Below, piece by piece: positions 1 through 64,000 of a stretch of DNA of 64,000 nt (positions are counted from its first letter, which is position 1; every line of letters starts with the position of its first letter). The stretch lies in the IMG/VR virus record IMGVR_UViG_3300042881_006586. One strand, given 5' to 3'. The stretch is from a virus. The notes under the pieces were generated by a model. The model made no database searches. It was not told the DNA's origin and was given only the letters and a program-made list of their open reading frames with translations. Made by a program: the position numbers and the translations under genes.

Positions 1-254
1 TTTTTTAATCCTAATTTAATATAACCTTCTGTTGCAACACTCTGATAAGTTAAAAATGTTACTAATTCTTTTTTAAATTCTTCTATTCCTATCAAAATAT
101 CAATTAAATCCTTTATAAATTTAACTGTTTTATTTTTTTTAGCAATTAAAGATTCTAATTTTTTATTTTTTTTTAATTTAGGAAATCCACTATTGATACT
201 TTTTAAAGCAGCAATTTGATTTAAAACATCAAACTTTTTTTCAAATGTACCCAT
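1..254 (-). CDS. hypothetical protein, runs off the left edge (MGTFEKKFDVLNQIAAFKS...)
   Basis: ATG at 254 overlaps the TAA of the upstream gene; frame open to the window edge; not in the ORF track. Confidence 0.6.
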   Translation of the reverse strand, partial: MGTFEKKFDVLNQIAALKSINSGFPKLKKNKKLESLIAKKNKTVKFIKDLIDILIGIEEFKKELVTFLTYQSVATEGYIKLGLK

Positions 255-640
255 TATAGACTTAAATCGTAAGTATTATCTTGTTCCATGTCTTTTAAAA
301 TATTCTCACGAAGTTTAGCAATATCCTCTTGAGAAAGAGTTGGCATTTCATGCACTTCTTGTTCTTCTTTATCGCTATTGATTTTGCTTGTTCCGATTAC
401 TTTAGCATGGATTTGAATAAGTTTGATTTTTTTGTCAATAACATCATTGAGAACTTTTCGACTCTCATTGAAATATCTTGCCAATTCCAATTCATCTTGA
501 AAGTCTTCAGGTTTTGATTTTGAAGCCCTTTCACTTATTTTTTCCAAGATAGCTTTCTTTTGTTCATCGCAATCACGATAAGCTTCACGCATTGCATCAA
601 AAAGGCTGTCTACATCTAATTTTATATTTCTCTTTGCCAT
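254..640 (-). CDS. hypothetical coiled-coil protein
   Basis: 128 aa ORF preceded by the ATATTTATA motif. Confidence 0.7.
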   Translation of the reverse strand: MAKRNIKLDVDSLFDAMREAYRDCDEQKKAILEKISERASKSKPEDFQDELELARYFNESRKVLNDVIDKKIKLIQIHAKVIGTSKINSDKEEQEVHEMPTLSQEDIAKLRENILKDMEQDNTYDLSL

Positions 641-661
641 ATATATTTTTTTATATAAATA

Positions 662-1459: not shown

Positions 1460-1465
1460 GGTAAT

Positions 1466-2233
1466 TTATGGGTAAGATATTTCACGGTCATAATCAAAGA
1501 AGTATTCTTTCCTTGACATGTTGTACCAAAATTTCTTCTCCATTTCATCCATGTTTTTTTGCATATCATGAATTGAACCCGAAATACCGTTGAAATGTTT
1601 ATATGTCATCTTAGGTATTACATATACCATTTTTCCGAAATTTAACAATCTCAATAGGAATTCAAAGTCTCCGAATTTAAGAATGGATGATTTCAATTTA
1701 CCGACAGCTTCAAATGCAGATTTTTTGATTGTAAAACAATTTACATTAAAGTTATAAAAAGCTTTTTCTTTTGTTTTAGCTAAATCAAAATAACCGAATT
1801 TTTCCATAGTTCCTGCAGACCATACTGTTTCATTTGAAAAGCCAATAGGCTTATCTTCAAAATCTACTTCATATACTAAAGGAATAAAACAATCTATATT
1901 GGTATAAGCACTGATATACTTATTAATATTTTGAACATGATTCGGGAAAATCACATCATCAAATTGAACTACTGATAAATATTCAGTTTCGATTTTAGAT
2001 GCAGCAAAATTCACTTGAGAGGCAAAATCAGTTTTTCCACTGTCATTAACTATTTGTTGATAGTCAAAATCTTTCAACAAAGACTCAAGTTCCTTATTAA
2101 ATTTAGGGGCTACAACAGCCACTTTAAAATTTTTATCGTTTTGGTTTTTGATGGATTCTAAACATCCAATAAAATATTCCTTATTAGCTTTAGTGATTTC
2201 AAAAACAGGTATAATTAAAGTTGTATTATTCAT
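1466..2233 (-). CDS. GT2-family glycosyltransferase
   Basis: LIIPVF...CLESIKNQ, VNFAA, QFDD (DxD-like), GDFEFLLR. Confidence 0.8.
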   Translation of the reverse strand: MNNTTLIIPVFEITKANKEYFIGCLESIKNQNDKNFKVAVVAPKFNKELESLLKDFDYQQIVNDSGKTDFASQVNFAASKIETEYLSVVQFDDVIFPNHVQNINKYISAYTNIDCFIPLVYEVDFEDKPIGFSNETVWSAGTMEKFGYFDLAKTKEKAFYNFNVNCFTIKKSAFEAVGKLKSSILKFGDFEFLLRLLNFGKMVYVIPKMTYKHFNGISGSIHDMQKNMDEMEKKFWYNMSRKEYFFDYDREISYP

Positions 2234-3281
2234 TGATTGTTGATTTTATTTCTTCTAATTTTTGGATTCTATTTTTCAAAAGAGTTTCAAATGTTTCAAC
2301 TGTAGCTTTTACAAAATTTTCTTTTGAATATTTTGCTGCAGTTTGTGCCATAATGTCATAGGCTTTGTTATCCAAAGTATCTACAAACCACTCATCCATA
2401 TATTGAGCAATATAATCAACCATTGTTGTATAATTCGATACCCAAATACCATTATCTGTTTCAGCATTAATCCATTCAGGAATCATATCAGGAACTTTAC
2501 CGATAACAGGCACACCTGATTTCATACATTCAAGAGGGAATGTTCCAAAAGAAGAAATCTCATCTACCCAAATAGCCAAACAACATTCTCTCAAATTGCT
2601 TGCAAATTCACTTCTATCCATATTAGAGGTTACTACAAATGGAATCCAAGAATACTGAGGATAAGTCAAATAAAATTCTTTTTGAATCTTTTCTCCTCTT
2701 GATTTATCTCTTGTGAATAAGAAGATTTTAGGATTTTGTGGTTTATCACTTGGTTTGAAATCATCATGAATATAAGGATTGATTACACTTATATCCATAT
2801 TTCTCATGAACCTTTCAATACGTTCTTTTTGGACTTCTGAAGTGGTAATTACAGTATTGATACCAAATTGTGACCATCTGATACCTGCATTCAGATTATA
2901 GAAGATTAAATCCTGTACCTGAGAAATAACCACAACTTCCCAAGGGAGTTTAATATTGTTCTCACGCATATCAGCATAGAATGATTGAACCCATGCTTCA
3001 GGTAAGAATAAAAAGTCAGATGGTTTTACAAGGATTTTCTCAAAAGGAGTATGAGGTAATTTATCATAGTTATTACCCATCCACATTGGGGTCATATATT
3101 CCTTATCGTGGAGAATATAGGCATTGTAGCCCTTTTCTCTGAGAACTGCTACCATATCATAGATATAGGCAACAGCACCGCTTGTATTACCTTTAGTGTT
3201 GGGCACATAAAAATAATATGAACCTTGATTTTCTTTCAGTTGATTTATAAAATCTTCAAAAGTTAATTTTTGATTTTCCAT
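2226..3281 (-). CDS. GT-B (GT4-like) glycosyltransferase
   Basis: SGAVAYIY, FLPEAW, SSFGTFPLECMKSGVPVIG. Confidence 0.75.
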   Translation of the reverse strand: MENQKLTFEDFINQLKENQGSYYFYVPNTKGNTSGAVAYIYDMVAVLREKGYNAYILHDKEYMTPMWMGNNYDKLPHTPFEKILVKPSDFLFLPEAWVQSFYADMRENNIKLPWEVVVISQVQDLIFYNLNAGIRWSQFGINTVITTSEVQKERIERFMRNMDISVINPYIHDDFKPSDKPQNPKIFLFTRDKSRGEKIQKEFYLTYPQYSWIPFVVTSNMDRSEFASNLRECCLAIWVDEISSFGTFPLECMKSGVPVIGKVPDMIPEWINAETDNGIWVSNYTTMVDYIAQYMDEWFVDTLDNKAYDIMAQTAAKYSKENFVKATVETFETLLKNRIQKLEEIKSTINE

Positions 3282-3361
3282 TTATTTATTTAAATTTTGT
3301 GTTGATTTTTTTGGTTCTTTAGAAATTTTTGCTTTCTTAGGGGTATTTGCAGGTTCGTTTT

Positions 3362-4174: not shown

Positions 4175-4221
4175 TATTAGTTTTATTAATAATATAGTTG
4201 AGAATGATAAAAAATAAAAAA

Positions 4222-4251
4222 GCGAAAAATACTGTGTTTTGTATTTTTCGC
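4222..4251 (-). terminator. intrinsic terminator hairpin
   Basis: GCGAAAAATAC...GTATTTTTCGC inverted repeat with adjacent A-run. Confidence 0.6.
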
Positions 4252-4285
4252 AATGTATTAAGTTATTATTAGGATATTTAAAAAA

Positions 4286-4834: not shown

Positions 4835-4855
4835 TAATATTTTTTTTATTTAAGT

Positions 4856-5482: not shown

Positions 5483-5493
5483 TATTATTTTTT

Positions 5494-7778: not shown

Positions 7779-7780
7779 AT

Positions 7781-9274: not shown

Positions 9275-9311
9275 CTTTTTTTGTTAATATAAGGATTTTA
9301 TTGAAATAATA

Positions 9312-9336
9312 AAACCGTGATTGTGTGTCACGGTTT
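9312..9336 (-). terminator. hairpin, probable terminator
   Basis: AAACCGTGA-7nt-TCACGGTTT. Confidence 0.5.
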
Positions 9337-11560: not shown

Positions 11561-12127
11561 TTATTTTGTACCTGTAGAACCAAATCCACCTGTACGGTCT
11601 TTAGAATCAAATTCTTCAGGGGAATCAACTTGTTCCCAAATCAGTTTTTCAACTTTCATAAGAACCATTTGAGCGATTCTTTCTTTAGGTTCAATAACTT
11701 GTTCTTTACCTGAAAGATTGATAACTGCAATTTTGATTTCATCTGTATAATCATCATCAATAGTACCGATACAATTAATCAAGGTAATTCCTTTTTTAAA
11801 TGCAGTACCACTTCTTGCTCTGATTTGAAATTCATAATCATCAGGAATATCAACATAAATTCCTGTAGGAATCAATGCAATTTCCATAGGGTTCAATGTC
11901 ATAGGAACATCTATTAAAGCACATAAATCTAATCCTGAAGAACCTTTTGTTTTATATTCAGGCATAACTCCACTTCTTGAATAAATCTTCACAGTTTTTT
12001 TACCATAATCTAAAGTTGAATTAGAAAAATAAGAAGTCATATAACTTTCATATGATTTTTTTGCATTTCTAATTTCTTCATTTGCTGCATTGAGCATTTC
12101 CTCAAGATTCTTTTCGTTCTGATTCAT
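11561..12127 (-). CDS. dut: trimeric dUTPase
   Basis: SSGLDL, RARSG, GTIDDDY, ERIAQ, RTGGFGSTG. Confidence 0.95.
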   Translation of the reverse strand: MNQNEKNLEEMLNAANEEIRNAKKSYESYMTSYFSNSTLDYGKKTVKIYSRSGVMPEYKTKGSSGLDLCALIDVPMTLNPMEIALIPTGIYVDIPDDYEFQIRARSGTAFKKGITLINCIGTIDDDYTDEIKIAVINLSGKEQVIEPKERIAQMVLMKVEKLIWEQVDSPEEFDSKDRTGGFGSTGTK

Positions 12128-13611: not shown

Positions 13612-14190
13612 ATGAATGAGAGTATTATTTTAAAATGTAGATTTGAGGTCGCAAATTGCGACCATAAATTTTATTTAGAGAAGCTTAGAAAATACTCAAA
13701 TGAAACAAAAATTATTTCTATTGAAGAGAAATATTATCATAAAGAAATAGAAGAGTATTCTTTTGAATTTGATGGATATATAACAAAAACTATAAAAATA
13801 TTTAAAGCGAAACTGAAATTCGGAAAAACCGAATTTTTGGCATTGATAGAAAACGAAGTTATCAAAATAAAAAATGCTGATGAACTTATAAAGTTAACAT
13901 CAGCAAATGATATAGAAAATTTAGGTTTCGTTTACATTATTAAATCCAAGTTAGGATATAAAATAGGTTATTCAAAAGAAATTCACAAAAGAAACAAAAT
14001 TTTTAATGTGAAACTGCCATTTCAATGGGAGTTTGCAAAAATATTTTGTTTGAAGGATTATAAGCTTTTTGAGAAATTTCTTCATGGTGCTTACAGTTTA
14101 AAAAAAATAAATGGCGAATGGTTTGATTTAAATGAAAATGATTTAGTTACTATTGAAAGATTTTATGAAAAAATCAAACTCCCCAAGTAA
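13612..14190 (+). CDS. GIY-YIG (MUG113/T5orf172-like) nuclease domain protein
   Basis: GFVYII...YKIGYS...R...EKFLH...GEWFDL. Confidence 0.8.
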   Translation: MNESIILKCRFEVANCDHKFYLEKLRKYSNETKIISIEEKYYHKEIEEYSFEFDGYITKTIKIFKAKLKFGKTEFLALIENEVIKIKNADELIKLTSANDIENLGFVYIIKSKLGYKIGYSKEIHKRNKIFNVKLPFQWEFAKIFCLKDYKLFEKFLHGAYSLKKINGEWFDLNENDLVTIERFYEKIKLPK

Positions 14191-16402: not shown

Positions 16403-16956
16403 TATATTGAATTTTTTAATTCTTTTCTTTTTTTAGGACTTAAATTCTTAGTATTTAGCTTTTCAATAACGTTTTTAACTATTATTGAAACAATATCTTC
16501 ATAATTTTCATCATTTGAAAAATCATCAACATTGTCTATTAAATTTTTAACATTATCTTGCACATCATCCATATCATAACTTTTGCTAAGTTCATCAATA
16601 TCAGGAATAGAAGTTGTATCTTTGCTGATAAGTTCTTCTTCTTTAGAATTTTTAAATCTATCTAAAATAGTATCTTCTCTTAAATCATCTTCAATTATAT
16701 AGGATTCAGAAACGCTTCCTGAAGAATAACCATAACCTCTGAAATAGTAGTAGAATTTACCATCTTGATTGGCAGACCATCTTTGTTTATCAGTGTCCCA
16801 ATTCGTTCCATCTATTTTATCATCGTAGGTAGTGGTTTTGATTCGAGAAGAGCCTGGGTATTCGACCATACCCCCACTAATAATTCCACCATCAGAATTG
16901 ATGATTTCATTCATCATTTCTTCAGTTATTTTCAATCTTTTCATTTTTTTACGCAT
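16402..16956 (-). CDS. hypothetical protein
   Basis: 184 aa; LKITEE leader. Confidence 0.65.
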   Translation of the reverse strand: MRKKMKRLKITEEMMNEIINSDGGIISGGMVEYPGSSRIKTTTYDDKIDGTNWDTDKQRWSANQDGKFYYYFRGYGYSSGSVSESYIIEDDLREDTILDRFKNSKEEELISKDTTSIPDIDELSKSYDMDDVQDNVKNLIDNVDDFSNDENYEDIVSIIVKNVIEKLNTKNLSPKKRKELKNSI

Positions 16957-29759: not shown

Positions 29760-31097
29760 CTAACTTATGTTGTTTAATAATATTAGGTTGGAAAAAGCCA
29801 TATACTCATCTGTAGGACTTACTTTTATATTTTTTGCTGTTATATTAATATTTTTACCTTTTAATTTAGGCTCTAATAAATCATTGATAAATATTGCACT
29901 ATATATACTATTTATATCATAACGATTGTTTTGTATTATTTCTGACTTACATTTTTCAATGAACTCTTCACCTAAAAAACTTATTATATTTTCTATATTT
30001 TTTTCTTGCACTTGATTATTTTCTGAATTGAATCGTATATCAAGAATTTGTATTTTATTTTTTTCTTCAGATACAAACTCTTCTATGTATTTCAAAGCTT
30101 CTTCATATTGACGTTTAAATAATTCGTGTATTTTAGCTATTTCTTTTTGTTTTTCTTCTTCAGAGAAATTTTGATAAGAAAGATTTTTTAATAAGTCGTT
30201 ATCCAACCATTTTGCAGTTTCACCGTTTTCCCATTTAAAAACTATTTCTTTTGAGTCATTAAATTTTTTGTAATCATCTTTAAGTTGAGTTTTCTCATAG
30301 TCTACATATCTGTCAGGGCGATAAAAAGTAACGGTGGGTGCAATGCCTAAACTTCCATATATTTTCCATCCATCTTTATGTTTTAAAGTTACATATATAA
30401 CTCCTTCTTTTGTGGTAGTAGACTTATATCCATAACTTCTTATTTCTGTAGGTTTAGCTGAAATGTTTAAAACCTCAAAATCACCATTATATTTACTATC
30501 ACCACCTAAATCTACTTTGTTAGATTCTTTTTCAAATTTATTCCTTTCATTATATATTTTTTCGGCTAAAGATATTTGTGCTGCACTTAATGTCCCTTTA
30601 GAATATAATTGGTCTCTTAAACTTTTTGCTATTTTATGATTTGCACTCAACCATAAATCTAAATTAGGATTTACCGTAAGGATGTCTTGTATTTTTTTTA
30701 ATCTATCTGTGGTAATCCTATTCCTTAAACCCATTTTTTTTGCATCTTTAGCATCAAACGCAAATTTTAATATACTTTTAGCACAATCAAATCCTACAAA
30801 AATATACTCATCATTATTTTTATTTTTAAACAAGGTTCTATTTGTAATAGATTTATTACAAATTGCACATTTTTCTTTATCATTTTTCAATATTGCAACA
30901 CGTACATCATAATCATATCCATCATCGACAGGCTCTAAATATTTTTCACCATTACTATCAAAATCTATTAATACTGCAGCTCCTACATAATCATAATCTT
31001 CAGGATATATATTCGTTCCAACAAACTTATTTATGTTTAAATCTTCTTTTAACAATTTTATTTTATTGTATTGAGCTTCTGTAATTAGTATTTTCAT
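29760..31097 (-). CDS. accessory protein with CxxC...C zinc-binding motif
   Basis: MKILITEAQY leader; CAIC...VGFDCA; own ATATTTATA motif. Confidence 0.6.
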   Translation of the reverse strand: MKILITEAQYNKIKLLKEDLNINKFVGTNIYPEDYDYVGAAVLIDFDSNGEKYLEPVDDGYDYDVRVAILKNDKEKCAICNKSITNRTLFKNKNNDEYIFVGFDCAKSILKFAFDAKDAKKMGLRNRITTDRLKKIQDILTVNPNLDLWLSANHKIAKSLRDQLYSKGTLSAAQISLAEKIYNERNKFEKESNKVDLGGDSKYNGDFEVLNISAKPTEIRSYGYKSTTTKEGVIYVTLKHKDGWKIYGSLGIAPTVTFYRPDRYVDYEKTQLKDDYKKFNDSKEIVFKWENGETAKWLDNDLLKNLSYQNFSEEEKQKEIAKIHELFKRQYEEALKYIEEFVSEEKNKIQILDIRFNSENNQVQEKNIENIISFLGEEFIEKCKSEIIQNNRYDINSIYSAIFINDLLEPKLKGKNINITAKNIKVSPTDEYMAFSNLILLNNIS

Positions 31098-34989: not shown

Positions 34990-37900
34990 ATGGCAATTCA
35001 GAAACCTAATCTTGCACCATCAATAAAATTTACTGAAACAGATTTGACTTTTACCACGAGGAATTTTGGTATTACGTCACTTGGTATTTCAGGTGAATTC
35101 CCTAAAGGTAGAGCTTTTACTCCTATAGCAATTGATAACGTAACACTTTTTAAACAAGTATTTGGGGATAGCAATCCTTGTAAGTTTGAAGGAACTCAAC
35201 AACCTATATATGAGGGAGTTTATATTGCAAAACAATTTTTAACTGAATCAGACCAACTTTTCGCTTCGAGAGTTTTAGGTTTGACAGGATATGATGCAGG
35301 TGATGCTTGGGGAATCTCTTTTGGAGCTTCTCTTGACCCATCAACTGTAGCGACAACTTCAACTTCAACTTTCACTGCTACAATTAACTATGTAAATGGT
35401 AGTGTTGGAAGCGTAACATTTAGCAACTCAGTTCTTCAAGACCTATATGATGCAGGTCAAATCGAAGATGTTTTGCTTGGTGGCAGTACTTTAGAAACAG
35501 GTGATACAGTTGTAGTAGGGAACAAATTCTTAGGAGATTGTAGCACTTTCACAGGAGCACGATTCAATATGTCTGTAACAAATAAAGTTGAAACTTTCAT
35601 TTGTATCACAGGTGAAACTTCTGTAGGAACTACTCTTGAAGTTCCAAGTGAAGTTCAAAACTGTGTCGTTCTTTACTCAGGTGGAACAATTACTTATGAT
35701 AGTACATTTGTAATTACAGTTGTAAATCCAATTGTAGTTCAAAATGTTGTTACAAATGAACTTACGGTTGTTCCTTCAGGAATTTTAACTTTAGTGGGTG
35801 GAACAATTACTCATGATTTAGATGGTTCAATTGTAATCGAAAGCGGTTCAATTTTCTTCCCTAACGGTGATGTTTTCACAGGTGGTGAATATAAAATATG
35901 TGATTTGAATGATAATGTTGCAGTTTACGATTGTGATACAATTGATGGTATCAATTATACTCTTACAACAGGAACTACAATTATATATAATACTGTAACT
36001 TCAGGTACAACTCAACAGATTGTATCACAAATTCCATCAGGACTTATACAACTTGATTTCTCAGGTACAGTGATTGAACTTTCAGGAGCTCCTTATGCAC
36101 AATATGATAATATGATTGTAGCATTGCTTCGTTCTTTTGCTTCTTATGATGGAGATGAAATTTTGAATTTCCAAGTTGAAGGTAATGTAATCTCAATTGA
36201 ATCAATTGATGGTGGCATTATCAAACCTTTGGATGACTTCTTAATAAAAGGTACTAAAACAGATGGAAGTACATTTGAATTCAATGTTTCTTTTGATAAG
36301 GCAAAATCTAACTATATCTTGAGAGTGTTTGGTAACTTTATACCTTGTTGCCCTAACAATCTACCATTATATGTAGAAGACATATTTGAAACTACTTTCA
36401 ACAATTTGTTGGCTAATAATTTGATATACTGTATCAAACCTTCAATTTGTTATATCAATACTTTGAATAACTATAAAGAACCTTATCAAGGTGCAATGAC
36501 TCCTTGGATTGTTTCTGAATTTAGAGGTAACAGAGTAAATAGATTGTTTAGAATTCATACTTTCTCTGATGGTAATGCTGCCAATACAGATATAAAAGTG
36601 TCAATTACTAACATTAGACCTGATGCAAAAACTTTTGATATTCAAGTTCGTTCTTATGGCGATACAGATAGAAAGCCTGTTATCCTTGAATCTTATTCAA
36701 GATTGACTTTAAGAGAGCAAGATAACAACTTCATTGGAAGAAGAATCGGTACTGTAGATGGTAACTATGTATTGAATAGTAAATATATCATGATTGAATT
36801 GGCTGCAGATTGTTTGGATGAATCATTCCCTGCAGGTTTCGAAGGTTATCCTGTAAGAGATTACGATTGTATGGTTAATCCTCAAATGATTTACAAAACT
36901 CAATATGCTACAACTGATAAAGTTCGTCAAACATATCTCGGTTTCAATGATGTGATTGGATATGATGCAGATTTCTTTGATTACAAGGGAAGACCTGCTA
37001 ATGCTTTGCAACCTTATTGGACAGGAACTACTCTTGGTTTCCACTTAGATGTGAATGCTTCTTCAGCTACTATTGATGGAGTAGGTGTAGTTAACTTCGA
37101 AACAGGTGCTTATGCTTTCCAAAACGAAGGTGATTTATTCGGTACGGCTTATGAACCAATTTTTGCAAGAAAATTCACTGTACTTGCCTTTGGAGGGTTT
37201 GATGGATGGGATATTCACAGAAAAACGAGAACAAATACTGACTTATATACAGTTAATGGTGCTTTAGGACAAAAAGGTCTTACTTCAGGAGCTTTTGATG
37301 TATATAGCTCTGAAAATATAGCTGAAGGTCAAACTGTAATAAATTCTGACTACTATGCTTATTTAGAAGGTATTAGAAGTTTGCGTAACAGAAATGAATT
37401 TAGAATTAATTTACTTGCAACACCAAATGTTAATACTGCTGAAAATTCAAATCTTGTCGAAGAAGCAATTGATATGTGTGAAAACGAAAGATGTGATACT
37501 TTCTATGTAACCACTACTTTGGATGCGGATAGTTCAGGTCAAGTATTACTTCCGATTGATGTTGTAAGTACAATTCAAGATTTGTATAATTCTTCTTATG
37601 CAGCTACTTACTTCCCTTGGGGACAATTCCTTGATGAAGTTAATAATGTTTTCCTTTGGTTGCCTCCAACTGCTGAAGTAATGCGTATCTTTGCTTTGAC
37701 AGATAAAATCAGAAGACCTTGGTTTGCAGGAGCAGGTTTTGTTGTAGGTGAAACTCAATTTAAACAAGCGAGAAAGAAACTTAGACAAGATGAAATGGAT
37801 GAATTGTATGAAGGTCGTATAAACCCAATTTCAACATTCAGACAAGCTGATGGGACTTCACCTGTTTTTGTCTTTGGTAACAAAACTCTTCAAATTGCAG

Positions 37901-43558: not shown

Positions 43559-46500
43559 ATGGCAACATTATTATCTTTAATAGGCGAAAGTGAAAGATTT
43601 CGTATAAAGCCAAAAAATCTGCAACCGACAGACGATGTGACTGAAAATGGATTTTCATCTTATCTTGATGATTATGGCACTGTTGCGCTTCAGGACTATA
43701 CAAATGATACAAATATAGAGTCTCCAAGTGTATTAGATATTGGTACAATTGCGATAGCAGACCGAAAGGATTATAATGTTTTTCCTCAAGATGTTTATAA
43801 CGAAGCTGAAGTAGAAAGAATTGATGTTTCTGTTATAGACATGCCTTCTATTGGAGATATAAGTGAAGATATATATCTTTCTAATGTAATATATAATAAG
43901 TATGCTAATTTAGATTATATTCCATTTGAAGTTGAAGATGCTGTAGGAGTTCAAAATCAAAGTGAAAGTTATGGTGATTATATAGCGGAAGTTTTAAGTA
44001 ATCTTGAACAAAGAGGAAATAGTTTAGCTGATATTTTTATAGGTCAATGGAATAGAGATGATTCTCCAATTGGAGTTATCGGTGGTCAAGCTTTGAATAC
44101 TGCTTTACAAAATCAATTTAAAGATGGTGTTGAAAGAAAAATATTCAGCATTGTCAATAAAAGCCTTTTAAACATTCTTGATGGTGGAGCTCTTATAAGG
44201 CAAGATTATAATATAACAACAGGAAAAACTTTCTTAGGCAGAGCTGTGGAATTTGCTGCGAAATTAGGTGGATTAGAAAATCCAATATCATATCTTCCTG
44301 AAGATGCTTTTAATTTCAATAGAACTAAAACTGTTTCTAAAAATGGAAAAGTCACTTATTTAGGCTCAGGTTTATCTTACAAGGAACAGGTAAACCTTAT
44401 GTTAGATTATACAGGAAAAGGTCAACAGAAGCAATTGTTGAACCTTTTGGAAATGAATATCTATCGTGATAAGATTGAAGGCAGAACAAAAACTCTTGAG
44501 GCAAATTTATATATTCCTTATATTATAGGTTATCCTACATCTTTGAATGCTAAAGATTTCATTGTAGCTGAAACAAAAGCTACAGGTGAATATTTTGAAC
44601 CTTATGGAGTTGTAAGTAGACATAGAAATAATGAAGGTTCTATTGGGGATATAGATAAACAAATATTTTCAGATGGATTTTGGTTTCAATGGACTTTTGA
44701 TAGTAAAAAGGAATCTATTGGATGGATTAAAAGAAATAATAATCCTTTTAGAGATAGTCCTCAATCTCTTTTATTTAAAACACAGGAACTTTTAAAAGAA
44801 AACAGTAATATAGGTGCATTTTTAGATTTAAGTGAAAAATCATTCGTTGAGGTTATTGATGGCGAAACGAGGGTTATATCAAGAAGTGATGGAACTACTG
44901 CATCTGCTACAAAAAAATATGATGATGGTACAACTATACAAGCAGGAGATTATTTTCGTGTATGGACTAAAGAAAGGGGATATAACAGGCTTTCAAGAGC
45001 GTTAAGACATAGAGCTTTAGATAATGGAGATAAAAGAAGTGTTTTAAACGAAAACGGTATTCCTAATTATGCTCCAACAACAAGAACTGCCACTGAACAA
45101 AATGGTCTTGGAACTGATGATATTATCAAGAGATATATGTTTTCTCTTGAGAATCTTGCTTGGAATGACCATATGGATGACTTACCTGAATGTGAGCAAG
45201 GCGCAGGAGACCCTTTGACAGGTACAAGAGGGAGAATTATGTGGTTTCCTCCATATAACTTGGATTTTGATGAAAGTGTTACTGTTAGTTGGAATGACCA
45301 TTCTTTTATAGGAAGAGGTGAAAAATTTTATACATATAATAACACTGAGAGAACAGGTAAACTTTCTTTTTCTATTTTAGTTGACCATCCTGATATTATT
45401 CATCTAAAGGAATTACAAGGGGCAAAAACTCAATATTGGGAAAGATATTTCAAAGGAGATAAAGCTGTAGAAGAAGATGCTATTGATAAATATAATAAAC
45501 AGAAAAAGATTTCTCAAAATGAACTTGATGCATTAAATGTAATTAAAAAACCTATTCCTCCGAAATATAAAAAAGTTACAAAAACTATAAAAACTGTTAG
45601 AAAAGTTGAGCAAGAAAAAAAGGTAGAAGTAAAGAAGAAAGAAGATGAAGGTAAAAAAGATGCAAGTAAAGGGTACGGAGACCTTATTTTAAGTGTTTAT
45701 TTTCCAAATGATGAAACAAATGTACCTTTAGCCCCTGTAACATATAATTATTCTTCAGAAGATGATGGTTATGTTGAAGATAAAGGTTTATCATTAAGAA
45801 TATTACAATTGAATAATTATGGTTATGAGGGAGGTGCTAAAATAAACGATTTAAATTTTGTTTCTACAGATAATTATGTTATAGAAAATAGTTCAGGTTT
45901 AAAATATAAAATAAAAGGTCAAAATACTGCGGTAAATGATAAATTTACTTATAAAGGGGGAACTCTTGCTTCTTGGCAATATGTGTGTAATCAAAATAAT
46001 TCTCCTCGTGGGTATAAAGATAGAAATAATAATGGATTAAATAATAAGTTTTATTTTGAATGGAAATCTACATTTTTAAAAATATTGAAAGGAGTTCAAA
46101 ATGCAGAAGTTACAATAATAGGTAATGCTTCAGGTGCAATTCCTGTTGGTATTACAAATTCAAGTTTAGCTTCAGGTAGAGCAAATAATGTAAAAGATTG
46201 GTTTAATAAAAACGTAATTAAACTTTTAAATACTCTTGGTCAAGATACTAAAGGGATTAAAATTGCAGTAGATAGCAAAGGCGATTTAGAAGATACTGAA
46301 AAAGCAAAAGAAAAAAAACCTTTTTGTCAAGATTGTGATGAATCAGATAAAGAAGAGTGCAAAAAAACAAGAAGAGTTGATATTTTTATAAAAGTGTTAA
46401 CTCCTAATCCTCAACCACAACCGCAACCTGAGCCACAACCACAACCTGAAATTACAGAAAATACCATTGAAGAGATTCAAACTTTGGAAGAATATGTTCT

Positions 46501-51100: not shown

Positions 51101-53997
51101 TTACAGATGTAAATAAAATCATCTTCTTAGGTACAAATCGTTTTACCGATGATGATACCCAAATTGCAGCCTTTAATGCTCAAAATAAAAGAGATTTATC
51201 TTCTTTTGTGACCGATATTATAACTCCTGTTTCAAAAGCAACAGGTTTTTCAATTGAAGATTTTTTAATCCCTACGAAATTTAAAGATGTCCATAGAAGT
51301 TTAGATAAAAAGACTTATGTTATAAAAGGGGATATAACAGATTTAATTTGGAAAGACGATGTTAAAGCTTCAATAAAGAAATTTCATAAATCAAAAACAA
51401 GTAATGACTTATTACCTGATAAATCTTATGCAGGTGTAATAATTTCTCAAATAAATGATTTATGTGTATTCGATGGTCAAAGAAACCCTTTAATAGATTT
51501 TGTAAGTACTCCTGATGTAAATTCTAAATATACAAATTTGTTAAGGAAGTATATTGGATTTGGACTTCTAAAAGGTGCAGATACAGACAAACTGCTTTTT
51601 AACCAATATTATTATGTAAATTCTAATATTAATGAAAAAGCTTATATGTTTCTTTTGACTATTCCTCTTGGAAATATTTTAGATTTTTATAAGATTTTGA
51701 ATATGGGAGGAATTTATAAGATGACTAAAATTCAATTGGCGTGGGTTGCATCTCAATTTTGGAGAGCTAAAATTTTAAGAGATGAAAATAGGGATGTTTT
51801 TGATAACATAATATTAAAAATAAGTAATTTAGTTGGAACTGATTCTACAGAATTACCTCCTGAACAAATTCAGATATATTTGAATGGATTGTTTGATTTA
51901 CAACGTTCTACAAGATATAATAATAATAATAATAATAATAATTTAAGCTATTTACCAAATCTTGATGATTATAGTGAAGTATTTATTCAAAAGCTTTCAA
52001 AATATTTTGAAGATTGGATAACTAATGACTTCTTCTATCCTTCAAATTATGCATTGTCAGATTTTAATGCTTCAAAAATAAAATTGGAAGATTATGTAAC
52101 ACAATATCATACTTTTTTCCTATTATCTGCAGAATCTCCTAATTCTAAAAATCATGAGGATTTTAAATTTTATTACAATAAAGTATTGGAAACTTTAATT
52201 GAGCCTGTTGATATTCATGTGAATGATATAAATGCTGTCAAAAAGACTTTGAAGAAAGAAGATATTTTATCACAAGATATTCTAAAACAATATTTAGTTC
52301 GTTGGATAGATACATACAAGTCTTTTGTAAATGAAGAGTTAAAGAATCCAAAAAAAGAAAATACTGCAAATACAGGAACTGAAACATTTTATACAACAGA
52401 TAAAGATACTAAAGTTGCAGTTTATAGACATTATAAAAATCTATATGATAAATGGATTGGTGGAACACTTGATGGAAGAGTTTATAATCTTTGTTCAAAT
52501 AGTGGCACTGCGCAAAGTGGAAGAAAGCTTATTGACAGATTCCATTTTGTGGATGCAGCATTTAATCCAATAGGAGATAAGGCTGTTATAGACCCTAAAG
52601 CTCTTATGAAGTTATCCACACAATCTTCTGAAGATTTTCATATATTCTTAGGTTCGTTGGCAAGAGATTCAAATTTTAATTTACATTCTTTACCATCATC
52701 TATTCATTATAAAACTCCACAAGATGGACTTGATATGTGGAAGCCTTATACCACTGCTAATGATGCAAATAGTGGTGCTGCTTATATTTTACAATATAGA
52801 GGTGGAAATTCAAAACATTTAGATTTAGGGAAAAAATCTCTTTATGTGAACGATGGATTTGATTTTAGAGAAACTGATATAGGAAAAATTCCTGATGCAT
52901 TCAAAAAAAGAATTCCTATGAATGCAAATAATGTTCCAAAGGATAAAGATAAATATAATTTGGTTATATTCCGTGTTGGATATGCAGACCAAAATCAATC
53001 AATATTTAAAAGTATTTCATTAAACCAATCAGAGCATAAAGAGACTGATGAATACTATAAAGCATTTGCAGATGCTGTTGATAATAGAGGTGGGACAAAA
53101 CCAATGTATAAAAAGGTAAATTTATATAATTTATTTGCTATAAGAAGTTATAAATGTAGTGTTACTTGTTTAGGTAACATGATGGTTAATGCATTAAATT
53201 ATTTCCAATTAGATAATGTTCCTTTTTTTCATGGAGCATATCAAATTGCTAAAGTAAGTCATAGTATTTCTGTACATAATATTGAAACTACCTTTGAAGG
53301 ATATAGAATGCCAAGATATACTTATCCTTTTATTGATAGTGTAATAGCCTATGTACAAATACCTCTTTCTGAAACACTGTTTAGCGGTGAAGCAAAAACA
53401 AAACCTGTTATTAGACCTTTAGGGGGAAAAAGTTATTCTGAAGCTGAAACAACAAGTCCTAATAGTACTAATTTGGTTGGTAGTGATAAACCTTTAAGGG
53501 ATGATTTAGAAAGTACTGTTAGTATAATGCATCCAAGTGTTCAAAGTACATTTAGAGCATTTTTTCAAGATGTTGAAACTATATTAGGTTATAAAATTGT
53601 ATATGTTTCTTCGTATAGAGGTTGGGCAGATAGCGTTAAAGTTTGGAATACGAATCCTGACGTACAAAAGTGTTGTAAACCTGGGCAGGATTACCATTTC
53701 TTCGGTCTTTCAGCAGATATAACTATATCAAAAGATAATAAAGTTTTAGGTTTAAATTCTTCGAAAAAAGATTGGGAAGCTACAGGTATTAGAGAAATTG
53801 CAAGAAAATATAAAATGAGATGGGGTATTGATTTTGCATTTGGTACTGTAGGAGACCCTATTCACTTTGATATACCTTTACACACTATGGCAGATTTGGT
53901 TAAACGTGCTATTGAAAAAAATGGCAGTTTAGAAAAAACTGAAGGAAATAAAATGGATTTTACAGGATTACCCGAAAATACATGGAAAATCGCATAA
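48124..53997 (+). CDS. baseplate hub protein with lysozyme-like and C-terminal M15 peptidase domains
   Basis: YPVFQLTVKGYYG, CLGNMM..YFQL..PFFHGAY hub motifs; SYR...HFFGLSAD...WG...DPIHFD. Confidence 0.7.
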   Translation: MAGFETISNENFFTVVVDPNGLNKENVRHEDLFIFVDFRAMPKSRSIVETDGTISNDVFNSKGISFIASTTQNGKEYLTTNYTNIGGKQMQEKEAFGIDNIKIEFGKDLAPIVQMKFLDARGAGLFNGYETVDEKGVLSNDSYFSTFFSLPYPVFQLTVKGYYGKAITYCLNLMKWNITFNADKGDFEIDATFQGFTFAFLADILMSHVIAITTSEIGQEALKKEGVISITDLVGRLGKLTQISEDFKKSSSSYEELKFVNSLLLDRIDKIIEVVGQPMTKSNFSTFGNKLPIPQLKLNTDQIFVRDVGVISEEKSDILKIIIEDLDKYIKEYNDFIKTNLTKYSYGNQYKIDDFNINIPAISYLIDDSSTNKIITEALKDGLSADPNITTTGALRSRLGLAEDSKKKFFIIDFHPFRKELAEIKDELTKKKNELEKKVNEELNANIENQIGLKLNIQNVFNILTGNIDAYLKVIYDHARAADNPDIQKERVKALRSGKNDINDGVNRVYPFPAVFDSKEDKEIWIGDIVGEDNPYFPEINLVRTTINSFITSNGKSANKNTTDNSKNTVGISGDSWIPVNPTDYSPIPYETINKLNFNGNQIPTELATEIVKRATNAYNKTGHRESTFNLFSQFEAAFSFSKTTESVIKNIINNTDSNTFADSVINSASTGTDVTVNNTTVTKNTKVETTDNTTVTTTTTQTVTVIETVEPVLVLPDDYIKYILSFEKAYNYPNYGLNASDPNGSYGTSFPNNKIPSNFTENDAINLYKSAFYIPFLTDVPEGLVPILLDICVNQVDPLGMLLAAAYNLSENGAIPIPLSTVRVIWFGKSEGLYIVPQNTIPFPSQYTTTSSYSYFQTYKTAIIALYNANPKALIDELSKVRLMYYSQTNGKEKISRNKVTFFNEWSIRTFAMAQFAKDISINKAQEYNYYHGINSEFYKRGSNFSFELKSAKDSEESSIWFNKVANTATPYLSNVNPELNTNKNVNTTLPVTDVNKIIFLGTNRFTDDDTQIAAFNAQNKRDLSSFVTDIITPVSKATGFSIEDFLIPTKFKDVHRSLDKKTYVIKGDITDLIWKDDVKASIKKFHKSKTSNDLLPDKSYAGVIISQINDLCVFDGQRNPLIDFVSTPDVNSKYTNLLRKYIGFGLLKGADTDKLLFNQYYYVNSNINEKAYMFLLTIPLGNILDFYKILNMGGIYKMTKIQLAWVASQFWRAKILRDENRDVFDNIILKISNLVGTDSTELPPEQIQIYLNGLFDLQRSTRYNNNNNNNNLSYLPNLDDYSEVFIQKLSKYFEDWITNDFFYPSNYALSDFNASKIKLEDYVTQYHTFFLLSAESPNSKNHEDFKFYYNKVLETLIEPVDIHVNDINAVKKTLKKEDILSQDILKQYLVRWIDTYKSFVNEELKNPKKENTANTGTETFYTTDKDTKVAVYRHYKNLYDKWIGGTLDGRVYNLCSNSGTAQSGRKLIDRFHFVDAAFNPIGDKAVIDPKALMKLSTQSSEDFHIFLGSLARDSNFNLHSLPSSIHYKTPQDGLDMWKPYTTANDANSGAAYILQYRGGNSKHLDLGKKSLYVNDGFDFRETDIGKIPDAFKKRIPMNANNVPKDKDKYNLVIFRVGYADQNQSIFKSISLNQSEHKETDEYYKAFADAVDNRGGTKPMYKKVNLYNLFAIRSYKCSVTCLGNMMVNALNYFQLDNVPFFHGAYQIAKVSHSISVHNIETTFEGYRMPRYTYPFIDSVIAYVQIPLSETLFSGEAKTKPVIRPLGGKSYSEAETTSPNSTNLVGSDKPLRDDLESTVSIMHPSVQSTFRAFFQDVETILGYKIVYVSSYRGWADSVKVWNTNPDVQKCCKPGQDYHFFGLSADITISKDNKVLGLNSSKKDWEATGIREIARKYKMRWGIDFAFGTVGDPIHFDIPLHTMADLVKRAIEKNGSLEKTEGNKMDFTGLPENTWKIA

Positions 53998-54006: not shown

Positions 54007-54861
54007 ATGAATACACTAAAATTTTCAGATATAAATGTTAAGGATTTTAACAATTTGTTAAAAACGAATTTTAATCCTAATTCCCCTAAAAAATATAATA
54101 CAACCTCATACCAAAGTTTTGCATGGGCTAAAAGTGCTTTAAATGAACTTGGGATTACTTTTGATGATAGTATAAATTCTGCTTGGGCATTATTCTCTAA
54201 ATTGGATGATATTAATATGAGATATATTAAAAAGGCTAAATTTAGAGAAGGTATTCAAAACGGATTTGATAATAATACTCTTGCAAAAATTATTCCTAAT
54301 GGTTCAATTGTATTTGGTTACTTTGTAGGTAATCCTTATGTGTTTAGGTCGATAGATGAAATGTTTTCTTTAAATCTAAGTTTAGGAATCATTAAACAGC
54401 TTTTTTTAAAACCTTATTTGAAATTAGATGATATACCAAATGTAAACGAAGATACAAATGATTTTGGATGGTATGATTCAACTCCTATTAGTCAAATGAA
54501 ATTTTCTGAAGAAGGGTTTAAAACAAAATGGGATAAAGTTAAAAATAAAAATCTTATTGGCAAAAAACTACCTTTTGTCCCTATCAACCATATTGGTATA
54601 TTTGCAAATGGTCATTTATTGCATTATTGTTCAGATATTTTAGTAGAACCATCAGATTCTTTAAGAATTGTTGCGTATTATGATTTTAAAACCTTATTTT
54701 TGTTGGATGCCACAAAACGTTTTGGAAAGTCTGCAGTGGATTTAGCAAATAATGTAAGAGGATTTACTGATACTGCTAATAATTTGCAAAGTAGTGAAAG
54801 TCTTACTAACTTAAAAGACATTTCAGATATTATTAATATAGCTAAAAAATTTAACGTTTGA
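54007..54861 (+). CDS. hypothetical protein, possibly degenerate papain/NlpC-like fold
   Basis: GSIVFG ... NHIGIF..G..LH. Confidence 0.4.
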   Translation: MNTLKFSDINVKDFNNLLKTNFNPNSPKKYNTTSYQSFAWAKSALNELGITFDDSINSAWALFSKLDDINMRYIKKAKFREGIQNGFDNNTLAKIIPNGSIVFGYFVGNPYVFRSIDEMFSLNLSLGIIKQLFLKPYLKLDDIPNVNEDTNDFGWYDSTPISQMKFSEEGFKTKWDKVKNKNLIGKKLPFVPINHIGIFANGHLLHYCSDILVEPSDSLRIVAYYDFKTLFLLDATKRFGKSAVDLANNVRGFTDTANNLQSSESLTNLKDISDIINIAKKFNV

Positions 54862-60785: not shown

Positions 60786-60803
60786 ATCTTTTTTTGTGAA
60801 AAA

Positions 60804-60835: not shown

Positions 60836-60858
60836 TAGCACAATCTTAAAAAGACTCT

Positions 60859-63324
60859 ATGAAAAGTTTTGAAGACAAATCTCTTGCTTATTTTGGTAAA
60901 GATTATGAACTTAAAGTTCTAAAGAATCTTATAGGTACTTATGAACAAAAAGGGAATGGTGTTTTAAGAGATGATTCTTTCGGAAGAAAGATGATAAATA
61001 AAATGACTGCTGAACATTTCACAAATGATTTGGCAAGAAGAATTTTTGTCTTTTTGAAAAACTATTATGCTTCTAAGAATAAAATACCTTTCTATGATAC
61101 CATATCTTCTTTTGTAAGAGCTAAAGTGGAAAATGAATATGAACAAGAAATGATTTTTCAATACCTTTTAGACATTGAAAAAGTTTCTATGGAAGATTCC
61201 GAATGGGTTCAAGAGAATACTATCAGTTTCATAAATACAAAGAATCTTATTTCCTCTTGGAATAAATGTCTTGAAAATTATATCAACAAAGGAAAATATG
61301 ACAAGTATTCTGAGATATCAGAAATAATGACAGAAGCTATCGTTCAAATGAACGATGAAGCTCCTTTGGAGGCATTTGTTGCAGGTGACTATAGACACTT
61401 AGAAGAAGGAGAAAGACATCCTATTCCTACAGGAATTGAAGCACTTGATATTGATATGAATGGTGGGTTAGCCTATGGAGAATTTGCTTTGGTTATTGCT
61501 CCTTCGGGAATTGGTAAAGCTCAACCTTCTTTTTCAAAAGTTTATACTCCTGATGGGTATAAATTAATGAAAGACATAAAAGTTGGAGATAAAGTTTTTG
61601 GTTCTGATGGTAAACCTCAAACAGTATTAGGTGTTTTTCCTCAAGGTCAAAAAGAATACTATAAAGTCACAATGAATGATAATTCTTTCACATATTGTTG
61701 TAAAGAACATTTATGGACTGTTTATAAAGAAAATAAAAAGTTTACTTTACCATTAGAAAAAATAATGAATGATTTAAAGTATAATGGTAAAAGAAAGGCA
61801 TTAAAAAATAGAATACCTATAACTCCTGCAGTTGAATATGGTAAAAAAGATAATTATATTCATTCATATGTATTAGGAGTTTTATTAGGGGATGGTTGTT
61901 TATATGAAAATGGCAGTATAACTCTTTCTTGTAATGAAGATGAAGTTATAAAAGAATTTTCTTCAAAATTAAATAAAGGATGTTCTTTAAATTATAAAGA
62001 TAGATATGATTATAGAGTCATTTGTATAAAAGGATATGCAAATCCTATAAAAACTTGTTTAAGAGAATTAGGTTTATTAGGTAAAAAATCTGATACTAAA
62101 TTTATACCTGATAGTTATATGTTTACTTCTATTGAAGATAGGTTAGAATTATTAAGAGGATTAATAGATTCTGATGGATATGTTGGAAAAGGTGGGTGTA
62201 TTCAATATTCTTCAGTTTCAATAAACCTTATAAATAATATAAGAGATTTAATTAAATCGTTAGGTGGACATTGTGGTAAAATAAGAGCAAGAAATAAAAA
62301 ATATACTTATAAAGGTCAAAAAAAAGATGGCAAAATTTCTTATAATATTGCGTTTACCTTTAATGATGATATAAAATTATCTTATATTCAAAGAAAACAA
62401 GAAAGAATTAAACCAAGAAATTTATATAGTAAAAGTAAATATATTAAAGAAGTATCTTTAGAAGGTGTAGAAGAGTGTTATTGTATAAAAGTTTCCAATG
62501 AAGATAGTCTTTATGTTACAGATGATTTCATTTTAACTCATAATACCACGTTTGCCACACATACTGCAAATAACGGTGCAAAATTTGGCTATAATGTTCT
62601 TCAGATATTCTTTGAAGATACTGTTGAACAAATCAAAATGAAGCATATTTCCAAGTTAATTGGAAAACCTATCAATTTTTCTTCTAACAAAAAGAACAGA
62701 AAAACTGTTATGAAAGAAACAGATTCTAAGTTAGAGAAAATAAGAAATAGCGGAGGGTGTTTAGTACCATTATCAATGGATTCAACAGAAACAACTGTAG
62801 AAGACATTAAAAAGGTATATAAGAGAGCAATGGAACAAGGGGTTTATTTCCCTGATACAGGCGAATTGAAAAAGATAAAATTTGACTTAGTTCTTATTGA
62901 CTATATAGATTGTATTAAATCTAAAAGGCATTATGAAAAACAATGGGAAGGTCAAACTGAAATTGCAAGGGATTTAGAAAAACTTTGCGGAAAAGAAGAA
63001 TTGAATTTTGCATGTTGGGTCTTCACTCAAGGAACAAAAGGTTCTTTGAATACAAAAATAGTTACAGGTGAACAAATGGGCGGTGACTTTGGAAAGTATA
63101 AAGTAGCACATTTTGTTATGTCTTTTGCAAGAGATTTGGAACAACAATCACAAAATAAAGCAAATGTTACAATTCTAAAAAATCGTATGGGAAGAGCAGG
63201 AATTCTATATGAAGATTGTATATTTGATAATGGTAATATGTTAATAGAATTTAACAAAGAAGAATTTTTGACTGAAAAAACTGTAAATGATACGCTTGTA
63301 TCTTATTCAAATTCTTATGAATAG
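60859..63324 (+). CDS. dnaB: DnaB/gp41-like replicative helicase containing an intein
   Basis: IPTG, GGL, APSGIGK|TT split Walker A, IFFE, LIDY, KNRMG. Confidence 0.9.
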   Translation: MKSFEDKSLAYFGKDYELKVLKNLIGTYEQKGNGVLRDDSFGRKMINKMTAEHFTNDLARRIFVFLKNYYASKNKIPFYDTISSFVRAKVENEYEQEMIFQYLLDIEKVSMEDSEWVQENTISFINTKNLISSWNKCLENYINKGKYDKYSEISEIMTEAIVQMNDEAPLEAFVAGDYRHLEEGERHPIPTGIEALDIDMNGGLAYGEFALVIAPSGIGKAQPSFSKVYTPDGYKLMKDIKVGDKVFGSDGKPQTVLGVFPQGQKEYYKVTMNDNSFTYCCKEHLWTVYKENKKFTLPLEKIMNDLKYNGKRKALKNRIPITPAVEYGKKDNYIHSYVLGVLLGDGCLYENGSITLSCNEDEVIKEFSSKLNKGCSLNYKDRYDYRVICIKGYANPIKTCLRELGLLGKKSDTKFIPDSYMFTSIEDRLELLRGLIDSDGYVGKGGCIQYSSVSINLINNIRDLIKSLGGHCGKIRARNKKYTYKGQKKDGKISYNIAFTFNDDIKLSYIQRKQERIKPRNLYSKSKYIKEVSLEGVEECYCIKVSNEDSLYVTDDFILTHNTTFATHTANNGAKFGYNVLQIFFEDTVEQIKMKHISKLIGKPINFSSNKKNRKTVMKETDSKLEKIRNSGGCLVPLSMDSTETTVEDIKKVYKRAMEQGVYFPDTGELKKIKFDLVLIDYIDCIKSKRHYEKQWEGQTEIARDLEKLCGKEELNFACWVFTQGTKGSLNTKIVTGEQMGGDFGKYKVAHFVMSFARDLEQQSQNKANVTILKNRMGRAGILYEDCIFDNGNMLIEFNKEEFLTEKTVNDTLVSYSNSYE
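61519..62544 (+). mobile_element. 342-aa intein with LAGLIDADG homing endonuclease
   Basis: starts AQP after GK, ends THN before T; LGVLLGDG and LRGLIDSDG. Confidence 0.9.
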
Positions 63325-63444
63325 TTAAATAATTTTTTTATCCCCTTTTTTGAAAATTCTTTCTATATTTATAAAAACACAATTCAAAATTTAACCGAAG
63401 ATTTCCATTTCCCTATGGAAATCTTTTTAATCTAAATTAATAAC

Positions 63445-64000
63445 ATGGAAGAGAAAATTTTAACAGAAAGCAAAAACCGATTTGTATTATTTCCTATTGT
63501 ACACCAAGACATTTGGAATTTTAGAGAACTTCATTTGAATGCATTTTGGACAACAAAAGAATTAGATTTGACTAATGATATCCGTGATTGGGAGAAACTG
63601 TCTGAAAACGAAAAATTCTTCATAAAAAATGTATTATCATTCTTCGCAGCAAGTGATGGAATTGTAAATGAAAACTTAGCATTGAATTTTTATAATGAAG
63701 TTCAATATTCTGAAGCAAGGTCTTTCTATTCAATGCAAATTGCAATGGAAGATATACACTCTGAAACATATAGCTTACTTATTGATACCTATATCAAAAA
63801 TTCAGAAGAAAAAGATGATTGCTTCAATGCGATTGAAAGATTACCTGCTGTTGAAAAGAAAGCTAAATGGGCTTTAGATTGGATTCAAAATGCCTCTTTC
63901 CAAGAAAGATTGATTGCTTTTGCTGCAGTTGAAGGGATATTTTTCTCAGGTTCTTTCTGTTCAATCTTTTGGTTGAAATCAAGAGGATTGATGTCAGGAC
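63445..64000 (+). CDS. nrdB: class Ia ribonucleotide reductase beta subunit, runs off the right edge
   Basis: [40 protein letters not shown]; not in the ORF track. Confidence 0.95.

Follow-up and report, generated by a model that had tools for sequence, protein, structure and literature searches.

This study examined a 64,000-nucleotide stretch of viral DNA, the IMG/VR record IMGVR_UViG_3300042881_006586 (hereafter the window), which is part of an uncultured jumbo myovirus, a member of a family of such phages. At least eight different short words are avoided in the window, namely GATC, CTAG, CCGG, CCAG/CTGG, GGCC, GGNCC, GGNNCC and CTTAAG. We consider it reasonably probable that selection cleared the genome of the recognition words of many host restriction systems, with separate CTAG- and CCAG-directed activities rather than a single activity against CYRG. 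The agent, host restriction enzymes, and their number are what we infer from the word loss. The preliminary description of this DNA had also proposed a restriction-type, DNA-targeting defence, and this remains the most likely cause, the depletion being real, selective and reaching into the proteins.

Words missing from the window

CTAG, CCGG and CCAG do not occur in the window, and CTGG occurs twice (16854 and 53681), each time inside a CCTGG (16853 and 53680). The total of two CYRG words compares with about 330 expected from base or dinucleotide composition, or one per ~195 bp. The preliminary description had reported the same sites and a rough expectation of one CYRG per 200 bp, and both agree with the exact counts. 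As a strict null, synonymous codons were permuted within each gene, so that the proteins and the codon usage of each gene were kept. About 245 CYRG words were expected under this shuffle, and the deficit was found for CCAG/CTGG (2 vs. 140.5, z = −15.7), CTAG (0 vs. 88.7, z = −10.8) and CCGG (0 vs. 16.2, z = −4.7). The check proposed earlier, against Markov and codon-shuffled nulls, thus placed CTAG, CCGG, CCAG and CTGG all far below expectation. The near-total loss of these words, and of the further words described below, holds for both strands and for coding and non-coding DNA over the whole window (1..64000), and a greedy search among 4,792 exact and degenerate patterns chose CYRG first (2 vs. 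332).

A compositional, mutational or assembly artefact has a negligible probability and is refuted by the counts. CTAG is indeed generically under-represented in bacteria, in most genomes irrespective of a cognate restriction–modification (R-M) system (PMC4687349), but that under-representation does not reach zero, unlike that of the window. The counts observed here are zero and not mildly low, the codon-preserving null is off by 5–16 standard deviations, the same pattern is present in independent assemblies from several samples, and the control words AGCT, CCTC, GANTC and TGCA are at expectation.

The choice of synonymous codons is systematic, as had been noticed by eye. Thr-Gly is written with ACA in 70 of 70 cases, though ACT is the top Thr codon, Ala-Gly with GCA in 42 of 42, Pro-Glu/Asp with CCT in 84 of 87, and Pro-Arg as CCA AGA. 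Furthermore, every flank of CCAG is empty against the codon shuffle (CCAGA 0/58, CCAGT 0/50, CCAGC 0/26, ACCAG 0/52 and TCCAG 0/58), and CCAG/CTGG outside CCWGG was found 0 times, with ~135 expected. The earlier claim that MspI-, BfaI- and EcoRII-type sites are insufficient therefore holds: since the ACTGG and CCAGA contexts are empty, a 4-bp target that includes CCAG is needed.

For comparison with relatives, the family of the tail sheath protein was collected and the DNA of eleven lineages was compared, the lineage with P0002 (81% sheath identity) not being among them. In the sheath tree, G003 stands beside the window, followed by the G002 clade, G001, L032/L034 with L033, and L036 with L035, while L037 and L038 branch outside. 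Both surviving CCTGG words encode Pro-Gly. The one at 16853..16857 (minus strand) encodes the Pro-Gly of YPGSS in the open reading frame (ORF) 16402-16956, which is kept in G002 as FPGNS and is probably indispensable. The other, at 53680..53684 (plus strand), encodes the Pro-Gly of KPGQD in a 1957-amino-acid (aa) ORF (48124-53997); the same Pro-Gly is present in G003, where its site is the only CCAG/CTGG word. As both survivors lie at Pro-Gly positions conserved in G002 or G003, the alignments suggest that these two pairs cannot be replaced.

Selection against CYRG words is ongoing. The window and G003 share 85.6% DNA identity over 29 kb, and the window has 5,879 single-substitution routes to a CYRG word; about 100–140 new words would be expected neutrally and none was seen, which indicates that selection is still acting.

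The avoidance is by no means confined to CYRG. GATC was found 0 times against 131–202 expected, GGCC 2 against 13–41, GGWCC 0 against 24, GGNNCC 2 against 39 (14 of its 16 variants at zero) and CTTAAG 0 against 21. The preliminary description, which overlooked these words, had argued that a single CYRG target is more economical than three separate systems; the argument is weak, since GATC, GGCC, GGNCC, GGNNCC and CTTAAG are avoided as well. We take GATC, CTAG, CCGG, CCWGG, GGCC, GGNCC, GGNNCC and CTTAAG to be classic Type II palindromes, the sites of known R-M systems; a characterised enzyme that recognises bare CCAG as a 4-bp target is not known to us. The super-pattern GRYC, which would unite GATC with GGCC, was rejected because GACC and GGTC are abundant in the window.

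Several other words also deviate in the window. AAGGAC/GTCCTT (1 vs. 20.5), GCTTAA/TTAAGC (7 vs. 44.5) and GGAC/GTCC (55 vs. 89 in the codon shuffle) are depleted. CTGCAG is in excess, with 30 sites (for example at 1813, 36803, 36830, 39040 and 39058) against 12 from the codon shuffle and ~5 from composition. The reading frame is NCT GCA GNN at 28 of these sites, TGCAG is found 174 times against 102, and the excess is probably a by-product of the codon constraints.

Dipeptides and conserved motifs

The proteins encoded by the window are nearly devoid of two dipeptides. Pro-Gly was found twice, at nt 16857 (YPGSS) and 53680 (KPGQ), where 31.7 would be expected, so the earlier statement that only two exist, both at the CCTGG sites, is correct; Gly-Pro was also found twice against 31.7 expected. 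Every Pro-Gly codon pair contains CCNGG, that is, CCWGG plus CCGG, and GGN CCN always contains GGNCC, which accounts for the two losses. Asp-Gln (GAT CAR) was found 11 times against 39.6. Met or Trp followed by Gly, Val, Ala, Asp or Glu and then Pro is not writable without GGNNCC, and accordingly [MW][GVADE]P was absent from the window (0 vs. 5.4) and from G003 (0 vs. 3.0), while the control, [MW] and Pro with any other residue between them, was normal.

The loss of Pro-Gly had been offered as evidence for CYRG, and this part of the preliminary description is contradicted by the relatives. In L032, L033, L034, L035 and L036, Pro-Gly and Gly-Pro are both at 0 against 9–16 expected, and in the same five lineages CCWGG and CCGG are at 0 while CCAG is present at 52–81 against 59–92 expected. 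Five related lineages with normal CCAG/CTGG have thus no Pro-Gly, through the avoidance of CCWGG and CCGG. The counts of both dipeptides are normal in distant sheath homologues of ~930–970 aa.

The changed motifs listed earlier (NCIGTID, IEPKER, EIKNV, TPN, GVGGG, LKKGG and GLMSG) are all present in the translations. For the small subunit of ribonucleotide reductase (RNR R2, GLMPG) and motif III of the dUTPase (PGTID), Pro-Gly does stand in homologues in the PDB. The attribution to the loss of CYRG did not stand in the same way, since the changes that could be compared with relatives, in the dUTPase, exonuclease, sheath and GMP reductase, are common to, or ambiguous with respect to, lineages that keep CCAG. 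The dUTPase is the clearest case: motif III reads NCIGTID in the window (11756..11776, minus strand) and (A/S)PGTID in solved dUTPases, but G002, a lineage that keeps CCAG, carries both NCIGTID and IEPKER unchanged. The non-Pro-Gly residues are thus shared by a close relative without the depletion, the very observation that the preliminary description had named as speaking against its reading of such motifs, and the change in motif III is older than the clade-specific purge of CCAG. The RNR small subunit carries GLMSG at 63985..63999 (plus strand) where human R2 has GLMPG in the alignment to 3olj_A. The tail sheath has TPN at 37420..37428 (plus strand), G002 has TPG and G001 has VPN; the direction of this change is ambiguous, PN being probably ancestral.

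Two other changes are clear derived losses in the window clade, as in the alignments both outgroups, G002 and G001, keep the Pro. In the ORF 43559-47767, EQGAGDP (45194..45214, plus strand) stands in place of EQGPGDP, by which Gly-Pro-Gly is lost, and in the ORF 54007-54861, GYFVGNP (54316..54336, plus strand) stands where the outgroups have FPG, a change of Pro to Val that removes CCNGG. Over the 11 aligned Pro-Gly positions of G002, the window has PN three times, PS twice, and AG, SG, VG, TE, AS and PG once each.

Relatives and the number of targets

The words avoided in the window are not avoided as a set among its relatives; the counts below are observed/expected, with expectations from dinucleotides. 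In the window clade (the window, G003, L010, L012 and L030), GATC, CTAG and CCGG are at zero and CCAG is near zero (two in the window and one in G003). The G002 clade has GATC 83/152, CTAG 17/98, CCGG 0/15, CCAG 130/149, CCWGG 20/27 and GGNNCC 37/33. For G001, the counts are GATC 0/628, CTAG 180/354, CCGG 257/179, CCAG 242/785, ATGCAT 0/75, CATATG 0/52, CTGCAG 0/20 and GRCGYC 1/31. L032 shows GATC 0/56, CTAG 32/49, CCGG 0/11, CCAG 81/91 and CCWGG 0/17; L034 shows GATC 34/54, CTAG 0/34, CCGG 0/5, CCAG 52/59 and CCWGG 0/11; and L035 shows GATC 53/55, CTAG 24/24, CCGG 0/20, CCAG 75/69 and CCWGG 0/15. GATC, which is at zero in G001, L032, L033 and L036 and normal in L035, L037 and L038, is avoided in about half of the lineages, while the avoidance of CCGG and CCWGG is almost family-wide. 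Among the CYRG words, G002 and L035–L037 lack CCGG alone, L034 lacks CTAG alone, and G001 shows a depletion of CCAG alone. Only the window clade is without CCAG/CTGG outside CCWGG. Each of the 11 lineages therefore has its own set, and the avoided words behave as separate modules that are gained and lost independently.

Based on these data, the purge probably proceeded in steps. Phage DNA that is unmodified but has no sites escapes cutting; the sites are removed through synonymous codons wherever possible, and where no synonymous escape exists the protein is altered, at Pro-Gly (CCNGG), Gly-Pro (GGNCC) and Met/Trp-[GVADE]-Pro (GGNNCC). Avoidance of CCGG and CCWGG came first, is almost family-wide and alone sufficed to remove Pro-Gly. 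The window clade went on to shed GATC-type words completely, a state found in cousins too, and uniquely came to avoid CTAG and CCAG/CTGG outside CCWGG. This last addition needs at least one further host nuclease with the 4-bp target CCAG, CYAG or CYRG. CYRG is not one historical unit. The avoided set changes between close relatives while gene order is conserved, so that changing host repertoires fit better than changing phage genes.

The data of G001 and of the cultured Microcystis phage Mel-JY01, a very distant relative, bear directly on whether one target or several are involved. In G001, CCAG/CTGG is at 0.38 of the codon-shuffle expectation (2.6-fold down, z = −20), a deficit present in every context and on either strand, with CCGG at 1.24 and CTAG at 0.62, and in Mel-JY01 CCAG is at 99/373 and CCGG at 688/288. 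These counts, which argue against a single CYRG target, indicate a pressure on CCAG-containing words in this phage group that does not involve CCGG. A Type III-like escape by strand bias of CCAG/CTGG was considered for G001 and rejected, as there is no bias (116 vs. 126). G001 is the close relative that tolerates CCGG: it writes half of its Pro-Gly as CCS GGN, CCS making up 27% of its Pro codons, whereas G002 writes all 15 as CCW GGN. G001 also carries a predicted C5 cytosine DNA methyltransferase (L022 4611-5648; contig 164611-165648) with the PC and ENV motifs and M.HhaI as the best PDB match, and the CCGG-rich Mel-JY01 has a weak homologue of it. This predicted enzyme would be consistent with self-methylation having replaced avoidance in G001. 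Among its nearest cellular homologues, an 82% match lies on a 1.3-kb contig that was assigned to a Salinivirgaceae metagenome-assembled genome, and the others are near 50% over many phyla, a distribution that is not informative about the host. The list of words avoided in G001 (ATGCAT, GRCGYC, CTTAAG, GGWCC, TGCGCA and CCTNAGG) resembles enzymes that were first described from filamentous cyanobacteria, but Bacteroidota would be an equally good match to the G+C content and to the methyltransferase homologues. A search for psbA as a host clue in the relatives found none.

The preliminary description had proposed a single degenerate target, and one host system directed at CYRG (palindromic) or CYAG (asymmetric) that keeps CTAG, CCAG/CTGG and CCGG at zero is a possible, although less likely, explanation. 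What stood of that proposal is that the four words are avoided equally and in every context; what did not stand is their unity, as the words do not co-vary among the relatives. Only in the window, G003, L010, L012 and L030 are all four absent or nearly so; one new system would explain both novelties of this clade, CTAG and CCAGH, and CYRG ranked first among the patterns searched. Recognition sites with a pyrimidine–purine centre are known, such as those of HincII (GTYRAC) and SmlI (CTYRAG). However, the words vary independently in the relatives, with CTAG-only avoidance in L034 and Mel-JY01, so that separate pressures on CCGG, CCWGG, CTAG and CCAG exist in the hosts of the family; the avoidance of CCGG and CCWGG predates the clade and adds no support; the loss of Pro-Gly is explained without CYRG; and the four-word pattern has no independent second lineage. 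A literature search for CYRG (in full text) or for bare CCAG as a recognition site found no paper. If a single system were nevertheless the cause, the host would tentatively be a probably freshwater, uncultured bacterium with a CYRG (or CYAG) nuclease defence of ~2.5-base equivalent specificity, whose sole visible trace would be the erased words of this clade.

It is also conceivable, but very unlikely, that CCAG/CTGG is absent through stacked 5-bp systems, namely CCWGG together with ACTGG (BsrI-type), CCAGA (BspNCI-type) and CCAGC. The phage already avoids many sites, and partial, context-specific depletion is found in the cousins (CCAGT 0.53 in G002, CCAGA 0.27 in G001 and CCAGC 0.12 in Mel-JY01). 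Such an explanation needs three further systems that jointly cover every context exactly, and the 5-mer depletions of the cousins are incomplete, while true targets there are at zero, as exemplified by GATC and ATGCAT in G001.

Among these explanations, separate CTAG and CCAG activities are moderately favoured over a single CYRG (or CYAG) enzyme. Several points weigh against this preference. The depletion of CCAG in G001 and Mel-JY01 is partial and context-dependent, as the values for CCAGA and CCAGC illustrate, and may reflect longer sites and no CCAG target. A CCAG-specific activity needs a new specificity, as does one against CYRG. One enzyme would be the simpler explanation for the joint absence or near-absence of the four CYRG words in the window clade, and total loss of CTAG is uncommon among the cousins, L034 and Mel-JY01 being the two cases in about 10 other lineages. 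Finally, the words were counted on 64 kb of a roughly 270-kb genome.

Gene content and comparison with known systems

The window has a G+C content of 28.6% and encodes a 1077-aa tail sheath, a T4 gp13-like protein and a T4-type baseplate protein, together with a 1444-aa family-B DNA polymerase, an SNF2 helicase, a 5'-3' exonuclease, a dUTPase, a GMP-reductase-like enzyme, the RNR small subunit and a DnaB-like helicase with an intein. Several metagenome contigs carry identical genes. One contig of a relative is 184.5 kb long and was rated 68% complete and another contig is 271.7 kb long, which indicates a jumbo phage. Nucleotide searches of the INPHARED collection of cultured phages with the window gave zero matches; by the sheath protein, the nearest cultured relatives are Mel-JY01 (31.7% identity) and Flavobacterium phage immuto.

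This gene content allowed us to consider whether the phage itself could be the source of the pressure, as it would be if it coded for at least one frequent-cutting nuclease for the breakdown of host DNA and the absence of the sites left it immune. Comparable enzymes (CviJI and Nt.CviPII) occur in chloroviruses, which protect themselves by methylation instead. No DNA methyltransferase was recognised in the 64-kb window, which suits such immunity, the two methyltransferases at 4286-5482 being FkbM/O-methyltransferase-like (small-molecule type) and lying inside a glycosyltransferase cluster; no restriction-like nuclease was recognised there either. Two genes might be candidates for this role. The protein encoded at 13612..14190 (plus strand), for which the preliminary description had suggested nuclease assays on CYRG substrates, has a T5orf172/MUG113 domain according to Pfam, but G002, which keeps CCAG, GATC and GGNNCC, has an orthologue with 52% identity, so that the gene does not account for the purge. 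The second, a 445-aa ORF at 29760..31097 (minus strand) and the only sizeable one of this kind, has no counterpart in G002 or G001 and is absent from the gp13-to-helicase gap in L032 and L034. It was rejected as a nuclease, as no Pfam, PHROG or PADLOC family and no nuclease fold was found. Its model comprises a Cys-rich ribbon, a beta-barrel and helices (AlphaFold predicted local distance difference test, pLDDT, 72.7; the Atlas model is poor), Foldseek against the PDB gave weak OB-fold matches alone (E ≥ 0.05), three Cys residues (C77, C80 and C105) are invariant, and it has 46 homologues, mostly of 270–340 aa. Moreover, the eight or more unrelated words would require many nucleases, and the avoided set differs between close relatives with the same gene order. 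A phage-encoded cause is therefore highly improbable.

Other features of the window and its relatives were recorded. A 130-aa ORF (14723-15115), with an orthologue in G002, gave a match to the TaqI-like C-terminal specificity domain (TaqI_C) that stayed below the threshold (E = 0.006; 17 bits, with 26.5 required). The DnaB-like helicase (60859-63324, 821 aa) contains an intein with a Hint domain and a LAGLIDADG homing endonuclease at about residues 235-502. The regions 1466-10890 and 12389-13549 hold about eight glycosyltransferases, FkbM-type and O-methyltransferase-type methyltransferases and the GMP-reductase-like gene; Mel-JY01 has a comparable block of GuaB-like, glycosyltransferase and methyltransferase genes (L041 27868-35287). 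The target of the glycosylation may be the virion or DNA. The insertions near the sheath module differ among lineages, with a Cas12f1/TnpB-like gene in L033 (16100-17362) and an RF-1-domain protein, a LAGLIDADG endonuclease and an ART-PolyVal-like ORF in L037 (4482-6355).

The purge of host restriction targets, if correctly understood, has several implications. Under a DNA-level defence pressure, the proteins of a whole jumbo-phage family would have been left almost without two of the 400 dipeptides, and near-universal catalytic motifs (PGTID of the dUTPase and GLMPG of RNR R2) are rewritten in proteins that apparently still work. The list of avoided words would read out the restriction repertoire of the host, and it predicts at least one specificity (CCAG, CYAG or CYRG) outside the enzymes known to us, which, if true, would be a useful frequent cutter. 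In addition, the family offers a natural series for the rate at which sites return after a constraint is lifted, with the G002 clade, which has regained Pro-Gly as CCW GGN only, and G001, which tolerates CCGG and carries the predicted C5 methyltransferase, as examples.

Restriction-site avoidance is well described, and the window shows an extreme, multi-target form of it. Phages commonly escape restriction by avoiding the sites (survey of Rusinov et al. 2018, PMC6286503), and the window agrees with that survey in that Type II words are eliminated in a lineage- or host-specific pattern. It differs in that unusually many words, at least eight (five being of 4–5 bp), are missing simultaneously, in the effect on conserved protein motifs, and in that CCAG/CTGG is non-palindromic and without an enzyme known to us.

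The same logic is seen in the Staphylococcus phage K (Kayvirus; L039, 40000-89999, 50 kb), which has GATC 0/125, GGNCC 0/37 and, because GGNCC is absent, Gly-Pro 0/36 in 16,146 translated residues. The host enzymes for GATC and GGNCC are known (Sau3AI and Sau96I). Phage K differs in keeping CTAG (197/217), CCGG, CCWGG and Pro-Gly (22/36), so that two targets are purged. No paper stating that dipeptides are purged through N-containing 5-bp sites was found in the literature search. Mel-JY01 (PP395634) is likewise an AT-shifted jumbo myovirus, and its purge is about as broad, with GATC 0/369, CTAG 0/126, CCWGG 0/83, GGWCC 0/112, RCATGY 0/134 and TTCGAA 0/67; it differs in its over-represented CCGG and its partly depleted CCAG. 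Bloom-forming cyanobacteria are reported to have exceptional numbers of R-M systems, far above those of most prokaryotes (PMC8262939). The host of Mel-JY01, Microcystis, cannot be transferred to the window, the relationship being very distant.

With regard to the enzymes themselves, the comparison can be made by type of site. The window and most of the family lack the sites of EcoRII/BstNI (CCWGG), ScrFI/SsoII (CCNGG) and Sau96I/AsuI (GGNCC), CCNGG and GGNCC being the words forced by Pro-Gly and Gly-Pro, but these types leave the empty CCAGA, CCAGC and CCAGT contexts and CTAG unexplained. CviJI (RGCY) and FaiI (YATR) are Type II enzymes with degenerate 4-bp palindromic sites, and a CYRG enzyme would resemble them in having two fixed bases, here the outer ones, and an R/Y-degenerate pair, and would cut about every 64 bp in random DNA. 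We know of no enzyme, gene or methylation motif for CYRG, and the difference from CviJI and FaiI is that such an activity is deduced solely from the absence of words in one phage clade.

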